Shown here: piece after piece, positions 16,488 through 26,226 of the stretch
Layout of the letters: every line of letters starts with the position of its first letter
Position numbering within the stretch: position 1 is the first letter of the stretch
Origin: a virus
Strand: one strand, 5' to 3'
IMG/VR virus record: IMGVR_UViG_3300042013_000061
Coordinates: 75,570 to 139,569 of that record
DNA length: 64,000 bases
Program-made: the position numbers and the translations under genes
The notes under the pieces: generated by a model
The model's input: only the letters and a program-made list of their open reading frames with translations
Told to the model about the DNA's origin: nothing
Databases searched by the model: none

Positions 16488-17858
16488 TTAACCGAAAGCT
16501 GGTTTTTTGTTACCGGACTTCTTCGGAACAGCGCCACCTTTCGGTTTAGCGGCTGCTTTCGGAGCGGCCTTTGGTGCGGCTTTAGCGGCGGCTTTCGGCG
16601 CTGCTTTTGCTGCTTTTTTCGGAGCGGCTTTTGCTGGTGCAGCTTCAGCTTTTGGCTTGGCTGGACGACCACGTTTTTTCGGAGCGACTGCCGGAGCGGC
16701 TGCTTCTTTTACTTTGGCTGGGCGACCACGCTTTTTAGCTGGTGCGGCGGCTGGCGCTGCTTCAGCTTTTGGCTTGGCCGGACGACCGCGTTTCTTTGCC
16801 GGTGCTGCTGGTGCTGCTTCGGCTTTTGGTTTTGCAGGACGACCGCGTTTTTTCGCTGGAGCGGCTGGAGCAGCAGCTTCAGTTTTTACTTTCGCAGGAC
16901 GACCGCGTTTTTTCGGTGCAGCGGCTGGAGCGGCGGCAACTTCAGTTTTCACTTTAGCTGGACGGCCACGCTTTTTGGCTGGAGCGGCTGGAGCAGCAGC
17001 TTCAGTTTTTGGCTTGGCAGGACGACCGCGTTTTTTCGCTACTGGAGCCGGTGCAGCATCAGCTTTTGGCTTGGCTGGACGGCCACGCTTTTTGGCTGGT
17101 GCAGCTTCAGCAGCCGGAGCGGCAGCAGGTGCTTTACGCGCTTTTTTCACAGCACCGCCGGTTTTGCCGAAGTGCTTAGTGGAAATAGCTGCGGTTTCTT
17201 TTTGTGCAGCAACTTTGCGAGCAGCAACCTTTTTAGGGTCGATGGTTTGCAGACGCTTGCCTTTCTTGGAGATTGGCTTGGCGCTGAAGTTACCGATGAA
17301 ATCCTTCAGGCGGAAAACGCCGCGCTTTGCAGACTGCGCTTTGATTTTGCCGATGGTTTTCTGGTGAGTTTTCACCGCTTTCATACGCTCGCCAGCGAGT
17401 TGTTTACGCTCGGAAGCGTAACGCTGTTTCTCAGCGGCGCGCATTTTCATACGAACGGCAGGAGCGACTTTTGCAGTGCGGATTTTTTGCAGTGCTTTTT
17501 TGTGAGCACCGGAAACGGCTTGAGCCTTCGATTTCAGTTGACCACGGATGGACTTCTGAGCGGTGACGGCTTGACGTTTCTGTTCCGAAGCGTGCTTACC
17601 AGCGTGGCGAAGTTTGCGGTTGGCTTTGTAGGCACGAACGGCTTTTTTCGCTTCAGCTTCGGTAGCACCGTGACGCATGGCACGCAGAAAAACCGAGTTT
17701 TCCAGATGCGCCAGTTTTTCCTGATGCGTCATGGTTTTGTAACGGTTTTTTGCAACCTTGTTCAGCTTCGATTTGTTTTTGTTGCGGTATTGTTTAGCCT
17801 TTTTGGCAGCAGCGCGTGCCTCGGGGCTTTTGTCCTTACGGACGACTTTCGTGACCAT
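16488..17858 (-). CDS. histone H1-like basic protein with 8 AT-hook (KKRGRP) repeats
   Basis: Eight KKRGRPAK units separated by Ala/Pro linkers; KAAPK tail; very basic N-half. Confidence 0.85.
   Translation of the reverse strand: MVTKVVRKDKSPEARAAAKKAKQYRNKNKSKLNKVAKNRYKTMTHQEKLAHLENSVFLRAMRHGATEAEAKKAVRAYKANRKLRHAGKHASEQKRQAVTAQKSIRGQLKSKAQAVSGAHKKALQKIRTAKVAPAVRMKMRAAEKQRYASERKQLAGERMKAVKTHQKTIGKIKAQSAKRGVFRLKDFIGNFSAKPISKKGKRLQTIDPKKVAARKVAAQKETAAISTKHFGKTGGAVKKARKAPAAAPAAEAAPAKKRGRPAKPKADAAPAPVAKKRGRPAKPKTEAAAPAAPAKKRGRPAKVKTEVAAAPAAAPKKRGRPAKVKTEAAAPAAPAKKRGRPAKPKAEAAPAAPAKKRGRPAKPKAEAAPAAAPAKKRGRPAKVKEAAAPAVAPKKRGRPAKPKAEAAPAKAAPKKAAKAAPKAAAKAAPKAAPKAAAKPKGGAVPKKSGNKKPAFG
16660..17100 (-). 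repeat. about 60-bp degenerate tandem repeat encoding AT-hook units
   Basis: Recurring GGACGACCGCGTTTTTT-like units. Confidence 0.8.
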
Positions 17859-17953: not shown

Positions 17954-19003
17954 TTAACTGGCCGAAATCCCCAGCCGGGCACAAGCCTTTTTAACTTCTT
18001 TTCGACCGGCTTTAATCAACTCTTTATCAAAGCCTTCTGCCACCATGAACTCTTTTAAACCAAACATTGGATCAATATCAATGTTTTCCACTTTAATTGA
18101 ATCATCTTCAGAAACATTCGATTTTTTCGCACCAGCCTTATGAATGCCCCCGGTAATGTTCGGGTATTGAATCATTAGGTCTGCTGGAATAGGAACATCT
18201 TCAGCCACGTGCAGCTTATAACGAACGTTATCCGAGTACGTCAGCTTCTTGTAATCATTCAGATCATTAATCTCTACGTTCTGCAACGTAAAGTTTGGTT
18301 TGTTTTCAACGAACTTGTGTTGGAACGCAACGCGGTTTCCTTCCATGCTGGCTTTAAAATGAATAAAGCCTTTTGGCAATGCTTCGCCAAAGTTTTTCTG
18401 GAATGGATTACCGCAATAAACGGCCCGCTTTGTTTTCATGAATTGGTATTGGTGAATATGCCCGGAAATAGTGAAATCGTTTTTGTGGGTTTCCAATTCA
18501 TGTTTGGTTTTTAACGAACGACCGTTATCACCAATAGCGCCGCTGTATTCAACGTGCGCAAAGTTCAATGCACCCTGTTTAGTGGACAGGGTTTTCAAGC
18601 ATGGGTACGGCAGGAAATTCACCGGTACGTTTTCGATTACAACGCGTTCCGGTTTCAGGACGATTTTCAGACGCTTAAACGCTTTCGACGTTGCCAGCTT
18701 GTGCATGAAATTCATCGACGTATTTTCGATATCACCGAAATCATGGTTGCCCATGATGTAATACGTGTAAAGGTTTTCATCGTGTCGCAGAAACAAATCG
18801 TACAGCTTGCCGTATGTATCCCAATCGAGGTCTGGTGTATCAGACAAATCGCCCGGAATAAATACGTGTTTAATACCGTTGCTATACGCGTACTGGTAAA
18901 TCTTTTCCATTTCCGCCAAGATGCGATCATTTGCATCGGGGAAATGCTTGTTCAATCCGTCAAGGTGAACGTCAGAAAATGCAATGCCTTCAAGATCAGC
19001 CAC
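17954..19003 (-). CDS. sbcD: SbcD/Mre11-like metallophosphoesterase nuclease
   Basis: SDVH, PGD, GNHD and SGHIH motifs. Confidence 0.88.
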   Translation of the reverse strand: MADLEGIAFSDVHLDGLNKHFPDANDRILAEMEKIYQYAYSNGIKHVFIPGDLSDTPDLDWDTYGKLYDLFLRHDENLYTYYIMGNHDFGDIENTSMNFMHKLATSKAFKRLKIVLKPERVVIENVPVNFLPYPCLKTLSTKQGALNFAHVEYSGAIGDNGRSLKTKHELETHKNDFTISGHIHQYQFMKTKRAVYCGNPFQKNFGEALPKGFIHFKASMEGNRVAFQHKFVENKPNFTLQNVEINDLNDYKKLTYSDNVRYKLHVAEDVPIPADLMIQYPNITGGIHKAGAKKSNVSEDDSIKVENIDIDPMFGLKEFMVAEGFDKELIKAGRKEVKKACARLGISAS

Positions 19004-19439
19004 GTTTTACTTCCACTGTGAATTGAATGTATTTCAGGGGGCGCGAAGGTTGGAACGAATACGGCATAACCAACATACCGATCAGACCCCGACCACGCTT
19101 TTTCGCCGTGCGTTTGTTACGCAGGAATAAGTGCGTAATCCGTTCACCGTCAGCCGTGTTCCCGCCGACCAGAACGCCACGGCGATTTCCCCGTTTTTCA
19201 TCATTTACAGTAAACGATTCGACGATACCTTCACCCGGCCCGCCGACAGTGAAGTCATTAATGCCACGCCGATCTATTAAATCGTCAAAGAATTTCTTGA
19301 TAATTGGTTTTGCGTCTGCGGTTTCCATACCAATTGTGTGTGACAGTTGATCGCTGATATGCTGCACCATTCTGCGCACGTTGATATCGTCGATAGAGCT
19401 ACGCGCTGGTATGTCGTCGAGGCCAGTGTGGTCAGTCAT
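18996..19439 (-). CDS. stand-alone tail-sheath C-terminal-like domain protein
   Basis: INVRR...FFDDLIDRRGINDFTV...FQPSRPLKYIQFT matches the contractile sheath C-terminal pattern. Confidence 0.6.
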   Translation of the reverse strand: MTDHTGLDDIPARSSIDDINVRRMVQHISDQLSHTIGMETADAKPIIKKFFDDLIDRRGINDFTVGGPGEGIVESFTVNDEKRGNRRGVLVGGNTADGERITHLFLRNKRTAKKRGRGLIGMLVMPYSFQPSRPLKYIQFTVEVKRG

Positions 19440-19713
19440 TTTTATATTCTCGTGTGCGCAGGCAGGAACCGAAATACAGGATGTTTTTATCGAACAGGTT
19501 ATTCACGAATGCCAGCCGGTCTTCGTCAAGATCGAATCGCGCTGCAATTTCTGAGAGCTTATCGTTTGTCTTGATGTGGTAGATTCCGAAGTTTTCGACT
19601 AAGTGGCGTTCGTACTTGATTTCCGAGGCTGCGCGTTCCGGGTCACTCCACTGGATACGCTTCTCGAAAATTGCACGATCTTTTTCGTGTACATCGAATT
19701 CGTCGGCTGGCAT
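19432..19713 (-). CDS. LysM domain protein
   Basis: YHIKTNDKLSEIAARFDLDEDRLAFVNNL...ILYFGSCL. Confidence 0.7.
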   Translation of the reverse strand: MPADEFDVHEKDRAIFEKRIQWSDPERAASEIKYERHLVENFGIYHIKTNDKLSEIAARFDLDEDRLAFVNNLFDKNILYFGSCLRTREYKND

Positions 19714-19718
19714 TTAAA

Positions 19719-20057
19719 TCACCGTAGTTTGATTACTTGGCCCGGAAAGATCAGATGCGGATTTTCCAGATTGTTCAACTGTGCGAGAGTGCGCCACGAA
19801 TGGCCGGTGCCTTCACCAATGTGCGAAAGCGTATCGCCTTCTTGCACAATGTACATGCCGTACTCTTTCGACACTTGATAACGCAGTTTTTTCTTCAGCG
19901 CTTTCAGTTCGTCGCCGGTGATTTCGTGGATTTCCAAACCATGCACGGTCTGGCGTGCGACAGAATCTTTAATCGGAATGTTAGACGCGCTCACTGTGAG
20001 GTTGCCGTCAGTCTGAACATGCACATTGCCAGCGGAAATATCTACTTTGGTATTCAT
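19719..20057 (-). CDS. LysM domain protein
   Basis: YIVQEGDTLSHIG...LAQLNNLENPHLIFPGQVIKL, canonical LysM. Confidence 0.88.
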   Translation of the reverse strand: MNTKVDISAGNVHVQTDGNLTVSASNIPIKDSVARQTVHGLEIHEITGDELKALKKKLRYQVSKEYGMYIVQEGDTLSHIGEGTGHSWRTLAQLNNLENPHLIFPGQVIKLR

Positions 20058-20419
20058 GAGATTGGCGGCGCCTCGTCGATTTTCAGTTCTTCGGGAGTTT
20101 TAAGATTGCGTGCTGCAAACATGGATGCGCGCAGACGATTCAAACCTTCGACCGTCAATTGATCTTGCGCGTAATTCTCTTCCGCGTGGAACGGATGATC
20201 GACGTGGCCGATGGTGCCAACATTCGGAAATTTCTTACCGAATTTTTGCAGCTTGGCTTCTTCGTCGAGGTTACGCACATGCTGATTGAACTGGCGCAGC
20301 ATCTGATCGTAAGCGGCGCGCTGGTAAACATACGCATTTTGAAACGCAAAGTTTCCGATGTTTGCTTGCTGAATGCAGTAAGCCAGAAACTTTACGGGAG
20401 GGCGAATTGGAATTGCCAT
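20054..20419 (-). CDS. hypothetical protein containing the EF-Tu N-terminal motif
   Basis: Contains NVGTIGHVDH, identical to the EF-Tu segment leading into the P-loop. Confidence 0.65.
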   Translation of the reverse strand: MAIPIRPPVKFLAYCIQQANIGNFAFQNAYVYQRAAYDQMLRQFNQHVRNLDEEAKLQKFGKKFPNVGTIGHVDHPFHAEENYAQDQLTVEGLNRLRASMFAARNLKTPEELKIDEAPPIS

Positions 20420-20431
20420 GACGGTTCCTTG

Positions 20432-20914
20432 TTAAAACGAATGTGTGAAATTCAGTGTGTAACGTTTGCCGTGAACGCGGGCGAGGCGCTGACTGCGGAA
20501 TTCGATTTCGACGTTCGCAATCCCTGTGTGATAAATCAGGGTAGCGCCGCGCCTGTGGGAGCGAACCGAAAAACGTTTACGTTCGGGTTCTGGGTTATTC
20601 ACCCGGTCGTACCATTCTTTCATCCACTTATGCGCAGCGTTCGACTGTTCGAAATAGCTGTGCGACGAAACCGTTTTCGATGGTTTGCGTTCGTGGAAAG
20701 GCAAACCGTTTTCATTCGCCGTCAAGGTGATATGAGTTGCAGGCGATGGAAATGCGCCGGGGTGGCGGGCGCTGACTTCGAACGCAGGCATACCGCCAAT
20801 TTCAATCGTCCACTGATTTTTCGTTTCTTTCGGGAAGACGTGAGCGACATGCAACGGCCCGCTATGGTTCGCTAAAACGTCCATCAAATTCGCTGGTGAA
20901 TTTTGCTCTACCAT
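20432..20914 (-). CDS. hypothetical protein (local paralog family)
   Basis: C-terminal SHRRG...FRSQRLARV shared with neighbours. Confidence 0.6.
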   Translation of the reverse strand: MVEQNSPANLMDVLANHSGPLHVAHVFPKETKNQWTIEIGGMPAFEVSARHPGAFPSPATHITLTANENGLPFHERKPSKTVSSHSYFEQSNAAHKWMKEWYDRVNNPEPERKRFSVRSHRRGATLIYHTGIANVEIEFRSQRLARVHGKRYTLNFTHSF

Positions 20915-21387
20915 CCCCGTCTCCCGATTCCGTAGCGTTTCATATCCACGCGGGCTTCACGCGCAGAGCGATATTCATACCAGTACGTCGAAACTTCTTT
21001 GGCGTCTGGAGCGGGGTTGCGTTCCCAAACATAAATCATAACTTTGCCGCGCTTATGCACGAGCGAATAAATGTGTTTTGTTTGGTATTTGTAATTCGGC
21101 ACGAAAACGTCGGTGATGATTGTAACGTCTTGTATGTACCCGATACTCCCGGTCAGCGCCAGTTCACCGTCAACAGGTACAGGTTCAACAGTCACACAGC
21201 CATCGGTTTCGTTGCATACTTCGCATTTACGCGCAGGCAAACCCCACGGATAAGATTTCGGCATTGTGTAAAAGCCATCACCGCGTTTCATGCGTGGCAA
21301 TTCACGAGGCTTGTTCGCCAGTTCCGCCCACTTCGCCAGAAGTTCGGGCGAGGGCATAAATGGGTCAGCAATATTCCAGCCGTTCAT
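20908..21387 (-). CDS. hypothetical protein (local paralog family)
   Basis: GAGG RBS; CEVC motif; C-terminal HKRG...YRSAREARV. Confidence 0.6.
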   Translation of the reverse strand: MNGWNIADPFMPSPELLAKWAELANKPRELPRMKRGDGFYTMPKSYPWGLPARKCEVCNETDGCVTVEPVPVDGELALTGSIGYIQDVTIITDVFVPNYKYQTKHIYSLVHKRGKVMIYVWERNPAPDAKEVSTYWYEYRSAREARVDMKRYGIGRRGW

Positions 21388-21716
21388 ACCGATTCCTCTA
21401 CGCGGGGTTTCCACATTTTGGCAAACTTCAAAACGTTCGGAACGTTATTACAGTCTACCGGCATCACAACCAGACAGGACGACTCGCCGTCACAGATTGT
21501 TTTCTCGTGGCCTTCGTGACAATCGAGAGTTTCACGAATTTTATCAAACTCACGCCAGTTAACACGCAGCACAACTTTACGAAAAGAATTGTGCAGCCAA
21601 TCAATGTACGTGCCTTTGTCTTGGAACTTCAAATGCGCCGAAAGCATTGAATGTGCAACCAACGTCGGCACCATGTAATCGGGAGCGTCGTCGCGTACAG
21701 CAATATACAATTTCAT
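21384..21716 (-). CDS. peptidyl-tRNA hydrolase II (PTH2)-like protein
   Basis: KLYIAVRDD...VAH...W...FRKVVLRV pattern of the PTH2 fold. Confidence 0.7.
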   Translation of the reverse strand: MKLYIAVRDDAPDYMVPTLVAHSMLSAHLKFQDKGTYIDWLHNSFRKVVLRVNWREFDKIRETLDCHEGHEKTICDGESSCLVVMPVDCNNVPNVLKFAKMWKPRVEESV

Positions 21717-22027
21717 GTTTTCGCCCTTCGCTTTTTGATCCAGACCTTCGCGGTACGCAGGCTACGGAATTTCAGAACGCTACCCTTTGGCAGCAACAGG
21801 AAAACAACCGCGCCCCACTTCGACGAATAAACAGACGCGTAATCCCACGCAAGTTTTTTCCATTCGTCTTGTGGAACCTGCATCGCATCAATGCGAGCGA
21901 CAGCACGGCGGTTGCGACGGTATTCAGTTTCGAGTTTTGCTTGTGGCAGACGTGTTTGGTACAACTTCAAAAGTGTCATGCCATCATCGCGAACCATGTT
22001 GCGCAAATCCCAATTCTGAGTCGTCAT
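21713..22027 (-). CDS. hypothetical protein (local paralog family)
   Basis: C-terminal KFRSLRTAKVWIK. Confidence 0.6.
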   Translation of the reverse strand: MTTQNWDLRNMVRDDGMTLLKLYQTRLPQAKLETEYRRNRRAVARIDAMQVPQDEWKKLAWDYASVYSSKWGAVVFLLLPKGSVLKFRSLRTAKVWIKKRRAKT

Positions 22028-22413
22028 TTTATAGATGCCCTGAATTCTTTCACCCACACTTTCGCGGTACGGCGCGAACGGAACTTTGTAACTTTCTTAT
22101 GTGGATAAATCGTGTGAACATTCACGCCGCGACGGTGCGAACTAACGATGGCTACGCGCTTGAGCGAATCCAACATTTGCTTTTGTTTCGCACGTGCGTA
22201 TTCTTTGAAGCGTTCGGCGGCTGCGGTGAAATCCGGGCTTGCATATGTGTCGCTTACGCTGCCATTTAAAAAATCTTCAGATATCCCCAGCATCGCCAAT
22301 TTCTGGCGCATCAATTCGTCCGACATTATCGGGCTGTCCAACTTCCACTGTTCCGGTTCCGGTGGCTTCGTCAGAAAGAGGTCGTTTATGTCCACTTGCG
22401 TGTTCCTTTTCAT
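22024..22413 (-). CDS. hypothetical protein (local paralog family)
   Basis: SHRRG...KFRSRRTAKVWVK. Confidence 0.6.
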   Translation of the reverse strand: MKRNTQVDINDLFLTKPPEPEQWKLDSPIMSDELMRQKLAMLGISEDFLNGSVSDTYASPDFTAAAERFKEYARAKQKQMLDSLKRVAIVSSHRRGVNVHTIYPHKKVTKFRSRRTAKVWVKEFRASIK

Positions 22414-22648
22414 GGCGAGCAATTGCCTCTGTAATAAAATTCAGAGCGTAGCAATTTGCGCGCACGTACCAATAACCTTCGTAACCGTCGGAGAATACTA
22501 CCAGAGCCGGGTACGATTTCGGATAGCCTTTGATATCTGGTTTACGTTCTTCGTTATTCCAGAATTCTTTAGCCGCTTGTTTGAAGCCAGCCTGTGTCCG
22601 CACAATGTACAGACACGGCGTAAGTTTTTCGCGATTGTCAGTAATCAT
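22277..22648 (-). CDS. hypothetical protein
   Basis: Coupled to the upstream stop; 3' end overlaps the next gene by about 137 nt. Confidence 0.55.
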   Translation of the reverse strand: MITDNREKLTPCLYIVRTQAGFKQAAKEFWNNEERKPDIKGYPKSYPALVVFSDGYEGYWYVRANCYALNFITEAIARHEKEHASGHKRPLSDEATGTGTVEVGQPDNVGRIDAPEIGDAGDI

Positions 22649-23726: not shown

Positions 23727-23926
23727 TGGCTAACTTTCTCGTGATGAACACGGGTTTCGTTAATCGAATTGGTCATGTCGTGAATGCTCGACAGCACTGC
23801 TTCGTCGCCCATCAATGCGCGGGGAATCAAAACGTCAGAAGTGATTTCCACACCATCTACAAGAAGCAGCAGAGCATTAATCCGCCAGCCTTCTTTTTCT
23901 TCGTTGCATTTCCATTGAGTTTTCAT
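23714..23926 (-). CDS. small hypothetical protein
   Basis: 70 aa, coupled to the sbcC stop. Confidence 0.5.
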   Translation of the reverse strand: MKTQWKCNEEKEGWRINALLLLVDGVEITSDVLIPRALMGDEAVLSSIHDMTNSINETRVHHEKVSQWPD

Positions 23927-26226
23927 TGCTCAAGCTTCACTTTCGAGACGCCTTTATGTTTCTCGACAGTCACGTAACTGCAATCGCTATGCACGTGCTT
24001 ACCCTTTTGTGTAATCAGGAAAACATGCGGCACCAGCGTGCGCAGGAACGGAATATAACGATCAGCAAAAAGCGTGATTGTTGTTTCGTCCATGTGTGCA
24101 TCAGGTTCGTCGAGGATCGCGATGTTAACCCGTCGATCAGCCTTCGCCATAATCACGCAAGCGAGGAAGTGCAGCAGACGGAAACTATCGGATTCTGCGC
24201 CGGACAATTCACGGACGTCAGATACGTTACCATTCCCCCGGTCAACGATGATGTGAACGCCATCGTCTTTTGCCACTACGCTAAACTTGAACGGCTCAGC
24301 GAAAATCAAGTTGGCAAATCGGTTGTAGTGCTGTTCCAACTGGTAAACGATTTGGTGCATCGCATGCAGTTTCAAGCCCTTGTTGCTGTAGGCTTTCGAC
24401 AGTGCTTTGTACAACTGCAATTTCTTCGTCAGCGGTTCCAGCTTTTCAATCTCGCCGCTGATTTGATCGCGTTGTTTCGACAGCAGTTTGAATTCAGCGC
24501 GACGGCTACCGTGCTTAACGGAAATCTCATACGCTTTTTCGTATTTCTTTTCTACCTTGCGCAACTTGGCGGCAGTCTCTTCAAGCTCTGCGGTCAAGCC
24601 TTTGTCTTCAGGCACTTCGTCGAATTCTGCAAGCCGCTCTTTCAGTGCTTTGATTTCGTCGAGAATTTCAGCCTGTGTTTCGATCTGTTCCAGCGTGAGC
24701 GTGGCAGAACCTTTCGGCGCTTTCGGCTTCTTCAGTTCGGACATTTGCTCGGTGATTTCATCGAAGCGTGCAGCATTTTCCAACTTGTCGTTAAGCTCTT
24801 CCAGTTCTTCGCTGGATTTCTTCAGCTTCTTTTTCAACGCGTAGTAATCACGCTCGTTGAATTTCAGTTTGTCGATGATCGCTTTGTTTGTCGTCCGCGT
24901 TTCACGGATTTCATAAGCGTGGATCATCGACAGTAGCAAACCTTTACGCTTCTTCGCAGCCTTCAGACTTTTCTCAAGGTCTTTCAGGTTGATTTTCTGC
25001 ATACAGGTCGGGCAGTTGCCGTCGTCGTGTTCGTGCAGCAAATCAGAAAGTTTCAGCGTGGTTTTCACCATGCTTAACTCTTCCTTCAGTTCTTCCATCG
25101 CGTCGAGTTTCTGTTTGTTGCAACGCGACAGGAAGCTACGCAATTCTGGCTCGGTATGATCGTCGAGGTTTTCCAGTTCACGCACGGCGGCATCGTATTC
25201 GTCACGAACCTTTGTCTGTCGTTTGTACTCGACTTCCATCGTTCCGATTTCAGCACGCAATTCGTTAACGCGTTTTTTCAGCTTTTTGCCGCCGCCTGTA
25301 TCGCCCAGTTCTTCCAGCTTCTTTGTCAGGCGCTTGGCTGTCTTCTGGTACTCGGCCAACTCTTCCTGATAATGCTCGGAAGCCTCAAGGAATTTGTATT
25401 GCTCTTTGAGTTCGGCCTTCGTGTATTTCGCTTTCTTTTGCAGCTTTGTCAGTTTCGATTTCGCAGACGAATAAAACTCCACTTGCTTCATGAGCGAGCG
25501 GAGTTCCTGAGTGCGAGCCTGCAACCGGGTAACTTTCTTGGCCTGAGATTTCACAACCTCGGTGGCTTCGTCGAGTTCCTTTTGCCGGTGTCGATTCCAA
25601 CCGTTTTTATTCAACGCGTCATTCGTGTTAAGCAGGTTTTTGCTATGCACGTCGGCTTTGTTCTGTGCGATCTTTACATCATCGACCAGCTTGTCGAAAT
25701 ACCGGCGCAGAACATCAAATTGATCCAGTCGCCACACGTCAGTGATATACGACATACGCGTTCGCGCAGTGCCGTACATAAAGTCGAGTTTTTTCTGCGA
25801 CTGGAGGTGAACGTAGGAATACCATTCATCAGAGGTCAGCGGAATAATCTTTTCGATCCACTCACGCTGTGCCGCTTGGCCGCGCACTTCCAAATCCGTA
25901 CCGTCGCGAAAGATTTTGTAGCCGCTTCCGCTTTGGCGAATCGTCCAGTCGTGGCCGAGGTTCTTCACGTCGATTTCAATGTGAGAACCTTTCGAGTGAA
26001 TCCGATTTTTCTTGCGAGTATCCGCCAACGGCATTTGTTCGAAACGCACGTTGGGCAGCATGCCAAACAGAACAGATTTACCGGCGCCGTTGTTGGTCTT
26101 CTTCGAAATCAGCGAGTCACGGTTGTGGCCGCTTACAACGGTGAAGCCACAGTTATTCGTGAAATCAAATGCACCTTCTTTGTACGATACAACGCCATTG
26201 AAACGACTGCCGGTAATATCAATCAT
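23923..26226 (-). CDS. sbcC: SbcC/Rad50-like ATPase
   Basis: Walker A NGAGKS, long coiled coil with CPTC zinc hook, LSGAE signature, ILDE Walker B. Confidence 0.92.
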   Translation of the reverse strand: MIDITGSRFNGVVSYKEGAFDFTNNCGFTVVSGHNRDSLISKKTNNGAGKSVLFGMLPNVRFEQMPLADTRKKNRIHSKGSHIEIDVKNLGHDWTIRQSGSGYKIFRDGTDLEVRGQAAQREWIEKIIPLTSDEWYSYVHLQSQKKLDFMYGTARTRMSYITDVWRLDQFDVLRRYFDKLVDDVKIAQNKADVHSKNLLNTNDALNKNGWNRHRQKELDEATEVVKSQAKKVTRLQARTQELRSLMKQVEFYSSAKSKLTKLQKKAKYTKAELKEQYKFLEASEHYQEELAEYQKTAKRLTKKLEELGDTGGGKKLKKRVNELRAEIGTMEVEYKRQTKVRDEYDAAVRELENLDDHTEPELRSFLSRCNKQKLDAMEELKEELSMVKTTLKLSDLLHEHDDGNCPTCMQKINLKDLEKSLKAAKKRKGLLLSMIHAYEIRETRTTNKAIIDKLKFNERDYYALKKKLKKSSEELEELNDKLENAARFDEITEQMSELKKPKAPKGSATLTLEQIETQAEILDEIKALKERLAEFDEVPEDKGLTAELEETAAKLRKVEKKYEKAYEISVKHGSRRAEFKLLSKQRDQISGEIEKLEPLTKKLQLYKALSKAYSNKGLKLHAMHQIVYQLEQHYNRFANLIFAEPFKFSVVAKDDGVHIIVDRGNGNVSDVRELSGAESDSFRLLHFLACVIMAKADRRVNIAILDEPDAHMDETTITLFADRYIPFLRTLVPHVFLITQKGKHVHSDCSYVTVEKHKGVSKVKLEQ

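Follow-up and report, generated by a model that had tools for sequence, protein, structure and literature searches.

Recurrence of an EF-Tu N-terminal peptide on unrelated small phage proteins

A 64,000-nucleotide stretch of virus DNA (positions 75,570 to 139,569 of IMG/VR virus record IMGVR_UViG_3300042013_000061, hereafter the window) carries an open reading frame (ORF) of 121 amino acids (aa) in which ten consecutive residues, NVGTIGHVDH, are identical to the N-terminal region of bacterial elongation factor Tu (EF-Tu). Sequence comparison in this study indicates that phages carry this one peptide on about ten small protein scaffolds unrelated to one another, while three other equally conserved EF-Tu peptides never occur in this way, and that purifying selection at the protein level maintains it in the ORF. 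The likeness noticed in the initial annotation of this DNA is confirmed and the peptide is under selection; how it may act we infer below. The two features concerned are the following.

20054..20419, minus strand: ORF of 121 aa (stop codon included in the span; from the ORF list), a small phage accessory protein bearing the EF-Tu peptide
20195..20224, minus strand: decapeptide NVGTIGHVDH, aa 66-75, which corresponds in phmmer alignments to EF-Tu strand beta-1 and the first half of the G1/P-loop

The EF-Tu peptide and its recurrence in phages

The region 20195..20257 on the minus strand encodes AKLQKFGKKFPNVGTIGHVDH, which is aa 55-75 of the ORF. A phmmer search of aa 50-85 against PDB sequences gave 65 distinct sequences at E<=10, and nearly all of the best 60 of these 65 are EF-Tu chains. 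The decapeptide is identical to EF-Tu of many species in 10 of 10 positions, as the initial annotation had stated, and the copy does end before the GKT of the P-loop, with P-F-H in place of G-K-T. The E-values obtained from the single ORF are weak (0.05-3.4 for aa 50-85, 0.63-2 for the whole ORF), and one ORF therefore cannot prove more than chance. In a direct BLASTP comparison with the EF-Tu of an IMG/VR contig, aa 59-75 showed 13/19 identity with a two-residue gap (E 6e-5, single comparison). A second weak collinear segment joins aa 71-89 of the ORF to EF-Tu 81-97, the G3 stretch HVDCPGHAD (8/19, E 0.065, single comparison). Such a pattern could come from a piece of tuf that has lost the part between the two HVD triplets, that is, from a G1/G3 hybrid, but at E 0.065 we do not claim it. 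The statement that the rest of the ORF is unrelated to GTPases is nearly right, with this weak G3-like segment as the exception. The likeness had also been extended upstream by pairing AKLQKF with AKEKF of EF-Tu. This part is not solid: gaps are needed, and the stretch reads SKLNKL in P0002 and SNITKV in P0003, a distant relative described below. Since AKLQKF lies inside the N-terminal module that is shared with P0003, its resemblance to EF-Tu is probably due to chance.

No Pfam family was matched by the ORF at E<=1, and no PHROG match was found. The G1 Walker A motif GxxxxGK[ST] is replaced by GHVDHPFH, and the second Gly, the Lys and the Ser/Thr are missing in six of six family members. The G4 motif NKxD is absent from the ORF, DHPF stands at the place of G3 DCPG, and the profile PF00009 is not matched. 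Lacking GK[ST] and every other G motif, and without a match in Pfam or PHROG, the ORF is not a GTPase, and the earlier view of it as a non-GTPase protein is borne out. A split GTPase was considered separately and rejected, as PF00009 has no match in the window's own 139.6-kb record (47% complete) and just a short piece (profile positions 2-34) matches in four other motif-bearing phage records, three of which are 100% complete.

IMG/VR was scanned for any DNA encoding NVGTIGHVDH by a degenerate scan, and the frames at the loci were then read. A total of 49 loci were found. Genuine, truncated or frameshifted EF-Tu genes account for 27 of them. At the other 22 the frame is a short ORF (35-207 aa) that departs from EF-Tu everywhere beyond the EF-Tu-like stretch; the motif in non-GTPase phage contexts, for which the initial annotation had proposed a search, is therefore found in many phages. 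These 22 ORFs and the window ORF form 12 clusters once the EF-Tu-like stretch is masked, and three nin-region clusters are syntenic, which leaves about ten unrelated scaffolds. A permuted decapeptide with the same ten codon classes gave no IMG/VR locus. Three other conserved EF-Tu decapeptides served as controls and were always located within EF-Tu flanks: HVDCPGHADY in 28 of 28 loci, ITGAAQMDGA in 48 of 48 and GRGTVVTGRV in 21 of 21. The difference between 22/49 loci outside EF-Tu for NVGTIGHVDH and 0/97 for the three controls is significant (Fisher p = 7e-13). These collection-wide controls place the likeness beyond chance, and the recurrence on unrelated small phage proteins suggests that the peptide very probably has a job.

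In Pfam, the carrier ORFs match the GTP_EFTU profile (188 positions) over its first 20-59 positions only, and the P-loop lysine is often replaced in them, by HSR in other families and by PFH in the window ORF. The lambdoid nin-region family comprises nine loci. Its ORF starts EF-Tu-like (MSKEKFERTKP.VNVGTIGHVDHG.) and keeps a stretch similar to helix alpha-1; in Aaphi23 the motif ORF (ORF27) lies between ninB and ninG. A nin-region gene of this Aaphi23 type is labelled 'Tu, elongation factor' in a figure legend of a 2012 paper (accessible text of PMC3391216). On two lambdoid IMG/VR contigs, L018 (3053-3604, minus strand) and L047, the EF-Tu N-terminal piece (about 45 aa) and a YbcO putative-nuclease domain (PF07102, E 3e-44) form a single fused ORF, and on L006, L008 and L021 the YbcO domain is a separate downstream gene adjoining the ORF with the EF-Tu piece. 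The fusion hints that the EF-Tu piece may work with that nuclease. No counterpart of the YbcO-fused ORF was found in E. coli genomes by megablast.

A second family was found in 48 records of Erwinia and Salmonella jumbo phages, several of them annotated 'putative elongation factor Tu'. Its members include ChrisDB, Huxley, Machina, phiEaH2 and Asesino, as well as ACQ60_gp074 of SPN3US. An acetyltransferase gene stands directly ahead of the motif gene in both records examined (SPN3US 173095-173304; Asesino gp213), and the macro-domain and SMC-domain genes near the SPN3US motif gene recall the sbcC/sbcD setting of the window ORF. In the alignment of this family H.NVGTIG.V is invariant and HVDH is lost in SPN3US; the 12 motif codons show up to eight synonymous and no non-synonymous changes. 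The ChrisDB record also contains, at C1:114354-114419 inside a 322-aa open frame, a second and very weak match to the first 25 GTP_EFTU profile positions (E 0.03). The carriers on L011 and L040, with the motif region RYPNVGTIGHVDHSRH, share 12/17 residues with the window ORF around the motif and are unrelated to it elsewhere; a tblastn search of phage records with the L011 ORF gave no match. A singleton carrier, L046, is located between the major head protein and the head-tail adaptor.

Some other accounts of the motif were examined and rejected for the window ORF. Hitch-hiking of the tufB 5' end with upstream tRNA genes does not conform to the loci, none of the 22 having an adjoining tRNA and only two having tRNAs at all, three in number and kilobases away. 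Integration into tuf through an attP site was likewise dismissed. The window's own record (47% complete) has no match to PF00589 or PF00239 and no integrase or resolvase, the motif stands at aa 66 of a conserved ORF, and carriers of the nin-region family sit between ninB and ninG instead of at an att site. A function at the DNA or RNA level is at odds with motif codons that differ at up to eight synonymous sites between phages of one host genus. Recent capture from tuf was rejected too, the 30-base motif DNA of the window having no exact match in the species-representative bacterial genomes scanned.

Conservation and architecture of the 121-aa protein

A search of 5.8 billion proteins with the ORF returned two clusters, at 90% and 78% identity, and an exhaustive search of representatives returned two proteins at E<=0.001. 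Six distinct full-length family members were obtained when cluster members were taken in. Comparison of the ORF with its 90%-identical copy on a 300-kb IMG/VR contig (L003) gave a ratio of non-synonymous to synonymous divergence (pN/pS) of 0.13, which denotes a real coding gene; the motif codons show one synonymous and no non-synonymous change. Variation among the six members touches 33 of 121 columns. In the block PNVGTIGH[V/I]DHP (aa 65-76) 1 of 12 columns varies, compared with 9 of 13 on its N-terminal side (aa 52-64) and 8 of 13 on its C-terminal side (aa 77-89), and the alignment thus presents the peptide as a conserved island between the two most variable stretches. All six full-length relatives carry the motif, and the loss among homologues contemplated in the initial annotation is not seen. 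As a separate observation, codons 52-76 (20195..20266, minus strand) show low synonymous divergence from L003, with two changes in 25 codons (pS 0.11-0.15 vs 0.46 for the whole ORF), which could stem from recent recombination across this patch or from a further constraint acting on the nucleic acid.

The protein appears to consist of an N-terminal helical module and a C-terminal extension which opens with the EF-Tu peptide.

20228..20419, minus strand: N-terminal module, aa 1-64, a predicted helical hairpin (helices 9-21 and 27-63), found alone in the 67-aa protein P0003
20057..20194, minus strand: C-terminal remainder, aa 76-121, with a His-rich turn HPFHAE, a variable stretch, a predicted helix 90-104 and an acidic tail

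P0003 shows 40% identity to aa 5-64 and ends where the motif would start (phmmer E 9e-8 for the whole library, with BLASTP and the alignment in agreement). It is carried on a 10.5-kb contig and is a putatively complete protein. With aa 61-121 as the sole query, proteins of 66-212 aa were searched and only the same family came back. The AlphaFold2 (AF2) model of the ORF, built from four sequences, is poor, with a mean predicted local distance difference test score (pLDDT) of 56.8. It contains helices 9-21, 27-63 and 90-104, and the decapeptide falls in a low-confidence coil (residues 68-87, pLDDT under 50). Further relatives of the ORF were sought in phage records by tblastn (five records returned, all at E>=2), in bacterial genome contigs and in metagenome contigs, and none were found; a search of viral contigs with P0003 gave none either. 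A scan of metagenome contigs for the motif followed by proline returned only two tuf genes, apparently frameshifted, and a search of the ESM Atlas gave no usable match.

Genomic setting of the ORF

The ORF belongs to a row of small minus-strand genes flanked by an SbcC-like ATPase (23923..26226) and an SbcD-like nuclease (17954..19003; phrog_100, E 4e-37). Three further features describe its immediate surroundings.

20425..20430, minus strand: Shine-Dalgarno-like AAGGAA, read from the sequence, 5 nucleotides ahead of the ATG of the ORF and directly after the stop of the upstream ORF 20432..20914
20054..20057, minus strand: ATGA overlap between the ORF stop and the start of the downstream LysM gene 19719..20057 (sequence and ORF list)
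21384..21716, minus strand: 110-aa protein of peptidyl-tRNA hydrolase 2 (PTH2) fold, putative peptidyl-tRNA hydrolase, about 1 kb upstream of the ORF in the same gene row

The ATGA overlap suggests translational coupling inside one minus-strand operon. The downstream gene 19719..20057 contains a LysM domain (PF01476, E 7e-12). The closest cultured relatives of the surrounding 7-kb stretch are Pseudomonas phages Lu11 and HRDY3, with about 68% identity over 24-28% of the stretch, and these two have another set of small genes between sbcC and sbcD. Neither is among the five phage records returned by tblastn of the ORF. The source record, a 139.6-kb virus contig estimated to be 47% complete, comes from a Lu11-like giant phage, with Pseudomonas as the probable, if tentative, host. 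No tRNA was found in the window.

The initial annotation had pointed out a PTH2-like gene about 1 kb away, and this holds at the fold level. The protein encoded at 21384..21716 matches Pfam PTH2 (PF01981) at E 0.0011 with 19.6 bits, under the 23-bit cut-off, and belongs to phrog_5822 ('unknown function', E 1e-53); a search of PDB sequences gave no match. Its AF2 model, from a 33-sequence alignment, has pLDDT 94.7 and a predicted template-modelling score of 0.87. In a Foldseek search of PDB, ranks 1-10 and 12 comprise 3erj, 2zv3, 1rlk, 1xty, 1q7s and 1wn2, with template-modelling scores of 0.64-0.76 and probability 1.00. The entries 3erj and 1xty are titled peptidyl-tRNA hydrolase, and the other top ranks are archaeal structural-genomics entries and Bit1. 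The model and these matches support a PTH2 fold, and the protein is a putative peptidyl-tRNA hydrolase at that level. The assignment seems absent from most records of the phrog_5822 family. A total of 909 relatives were found at E<=1e-5, and Pseudomonas and Salmonella phages of some 95-110 kb often carry one. Relatives also occur on contigs of 10561, 3810 and 2061 bases, the same sizes as the contigs of P0003, P0006 and P0007, which suggests that the adjacency of the ORF and the PTH2-fold gene is kept within the family of the ORF. No PTH2 neighbour was found in the other motif families among ORFs within 4 kb. The translation-focused module proposed from this neighbourhood is therefore not supported beyond a single adjacency, which is seemingly kept in the family of the ORF but is not shared by the other motif families.

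Several other genes of the window were noted. Two tandem LysM mini-proteins of 112 and 93 aa (18996..20057, minus strand; PF01476, E 7e-12 and 5.5e-5) contain no catalytic domain, and beside them a 147-aa ORF, also without catalytic domain, gives just faint tail-sheath C-terminal matches (E 0.002-0.05). A 456-aa Lys/Ala/Pro-rich protein (16488..17858, minus strand; ORF list alone) has about ten KKRGRPAKPK-like, AT-hook-like repeat units and may be a histone-H1-like DNA-binding protein. The small proteins encoded by the adjoining 21713..22057 and 22024..22422 (both minus strand) have a common C-terminal stretch ending KFRSxRTAKVW[IV]K (20/39 identity, E 2e-9), by which they are recognized as a local paralogous pair.

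Possible action of the peptide and comparison with known systems

Of the strands of the Ras-like G domain, beta-1 is the central, buried one, and the P-loop follows it. The 121-aa protein is best seen as a two-module accessory protein, in which the helical N-terminal module (aa 1-64) carries an extension opening with an exact copy of the EF-Tu strand and half P-loop (PNVGTIGHVDHP), in a stretch predicted to be flexible. The peptide might then serve as a sequence-specific surrogate of the EF-Tu segment. It is quite possible, and we put it forward tentatively, that such mimicry acts through EF-Tu itself. The most likely mode would be strand complementation, by which the phage peptide pairs with the rest of the EF-Tu G domain. 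The copied strand is buried in native EF-Tu and can therefore meet its counterpart only where the rest of the G domain is exposed; the target would be EF-Tu that lacks its own N-terminal strand, either because the strand has still to take its place or because it was removed, that is, nascent, unfolding or protease-nicked molecules. The outcome would be either the tethering of the phage protein to the very abundant EF-Tu or, because the copy has no GK[ST], a nucleotide-free, inactive EF-Tu. The SR or PF that often stands where EF-Tu has GK is in keeping with a surrogate strand docking on EF-Tu or leaving it nucleotide-free, and the invariance of the strand together with the loss of HVDH in SPN3US fits strand pairing better than P-loop chemistry. 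In PDB entries 2hcj/2hdn, which we take to be trypsin-nicked EF-Tu, the N-terminal piece is a separate 37-residue chain, so that assembly in trans is physically possible. Nicked EF-Tu may also arise from phage defence. The type IV Thoeris caspase has its cleavage sites at R45 and R59 of EF-Tu, just after the N-terminal piece (accessible text of 10.1101/2024.10.24.620036), and the Lit protease also cleaves EF-Tu, as cited in the accessible text of PMC13581612. A bolder version, which we regard as improbable, would have phages repeatedly evolving fragment-complementation agents: a copy of the buried strand, often with a dead P-loop, that slots into nascent or nicked EF-Tu and either docks a cargo such as the YbcO nuclease on this most abundant protein of the cell or leaves a nucleotide-free EF-Tu by which the elongation cycle is blocked.

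A number of points weigh against mimicry through EF-Tu and against the evidence behind it. No partner was identified by any test in the analysis, folded EF-Tu would not expose a slot for the surrogate strand, and a phage in need of translation would gain no obvious benefit from disabling EF-Tu. The motif is missing from the distant relative P0003, so the N-terminal module works without the peptide. The stretches aa 27-47 and 90-100 are as conserved as the motif block, and just six close relatives (78-95% identical) give the conservation test limited power. The predicted display of the peptide in a flexible stretch is weakly based, the fold model being poor. As the scan demanded the exact decapeptide, identity across families is partly by construction and the rate of drift is not visible. 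The 717 ORFs lying up to 4 kb from the motif in 23 sources were compared all against all by BLAST, and no neighbour family proved common to unrelated motif families; no neighbour gene is common across them, and the contexts differ (nin region, sbcCD island, between major head protein and adaptor).

It is somewhat unlikely, yet deserves weight, that a strand-loop(-helix) piece was once captured from tuf, spread by recombination and is kept for folding or oligomerisation with no link to EF-Tu. Residues that EF-Tu lacks are shared among carriers: [FY]PNVGTIGHVDHxxH is common to the window ORF and L011/L040 (12/17), and GHVDHSR to L011/L040 and the Erwinia phage family. They suggest that a module has spread from phage to phage, and in nin-region phages the piece is fused to or adjoins the YbcO nuclease domain. 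A generic strand-loop, however, would drift, while the ten residues stay identical to EF-Tu across scaffolds and hosts, and only the N-terminal piece of EF-Tu is found, the three other conserved pieces being absent from non-EF-Tu contexts (0/97). We consider it unlikely that the displayed peptide is a decoy for a third party. It would then not act on EF-Tu itself but titrate a host factor that recognises the copied segment when exposed. Candidates would be sensors and proteases with which a defence system guards EF-Tu, and the chaperones and proteases that act on it while it is nascent. The recurrence and selection data agree with a decoy as well as with mimicry of EF-Tu, and EF-Tu is a hub of anti-phage defence, being used or cut by Lit, type IV Thoeris and Avs7 (accessible text of PMC13581612 and 10.1101/2024.10.24.620036). 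Recognition of EF-Tu residues 13-22, however, is not reported for any of these systems in the accessible text of the two sources: the contacts of Avs7 are with domains II-III, and an arginine at P1 suffices for the caspase. Among the ORFs within 4 kb no sensor gene is linked to the motif genes, and no link of the motif to Lit, Doc or elf18, as raised in the initial annotation, was found. The segment is buried in native EF-Tu. Classical decoy mimicry of a surface is structurally awkward for a buried segment of the G domain. What stands of the decoy-or-mimic interpretation is thus that the motif is real, conserved and located in non-GTPase contexts, but neither a partner nor a defence sensor was identified.

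Two further explanations were also weighed. A small metal-binding site H72-x-D74-H75-P-x-H78 (with E80), to which the EF-Tu likeness would be incidental, is very improbable. The residues H72, D74, H75, P76, H78 and E80 are invariant in the first three relatives aligned, an extra His stands at position 77 in three of the six members, and L011/L040 read HVDHSRH; such a site nevertheless leaves the invariant NVGTIG unexplained, and the Erwinia/Salmonella family keeps the strand while SPN3US has lost HVDH. A decaying captured tuf fragment, or chance, with no function at all, is the kind of explanation to which the weak single-ORF E-values and a small family known from metagenomes only would lend themselves. 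It can hardly be true given that the permuted control gave 0 loci against 22 non-EF-Tu matches for the real peptide, that pN/pS is 0.13 and that just 1 of 12 columns varies in the motif block while its flanks are variable. The species-representative bacterial genomes scanned, moreover, do not contain the 30-base motif DNA in exact form, and recent capture is thus not indicated.

If the peptide acts through EF-Tu, the grafts would be a widespread route for very different phages, namely lambdoid temperate, SPN3US-like jumbo and Lu11-like jumbo phages, to reach the central translation factor of the host. They would also be, if this is true, a natural precedent for inhibiting or tethering a protein by a copy of its own buried strand. 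The strict specificity, one EF-Tu peptide being grafted and three other conserved ones never, offers a clean testable handle. Even if the job is structural, the repeated grafting of one host peptide on unrelated scaffolds is an unusual evolutionary pattern. A literature search, which did not cover supplementary gene tables, returned no description of phage proteins with an EF-Tu N-terminal peptide beyond annotation and figure-legend labels, and the peptide-graft pattern is apparently recurrent and undescribed.

The window ORF has ten consecutive residues identical to residues about 13-22 of bacterial EF-Tu (tuf, PF00009). It differs from EF-Tu in that its 121 aa lack GK[ST], G2-G5 and domains II/III and hold the peptide in mid-protein after an unrelated 64-aa helical module. 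The ORFs of the Erwinia/Salmonella jumbo phages and ORF27 of Aaphi23 are likewise short non-GTPase phage proteins with the EF-Tu peptide, for which no function is stated in the records or in the accessible text of PMC3391216. However, they have unrelated scaffolds once the EF-Tu-like stretch is masked, are found in other contexts, and keep the stretch similar to helix alpha-1 or an N-terminal arm, which are missing from the window ORF. A fragment of a host elongation factor is also present in Caulobacter phage Colossus, whose gp247, a truncated EF-Ts, has been proposed to modulate translation; gp247 is a whole EF-Ts subdomain with an EF-Tu-contacting Phe, not a grafted buried strand of ten residues (accessible text of PMC3556154). 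The Gol peptide is a capsid peptide and not a copy of EF-Tu, and in the accessible text of PMC13581612 and 10.1101/2024.10.24.620036 none of Gol/Lit, type IV Thoeris and Avs7 involves residues 13-22. Nevertheless, Gol/Lit, the type IV Thoeris caspase and Avs7 denote EF-Tu as a repeated battleground between phage and host, and Gol shows that a short phage peptide can act through EF-Tu (same sources).

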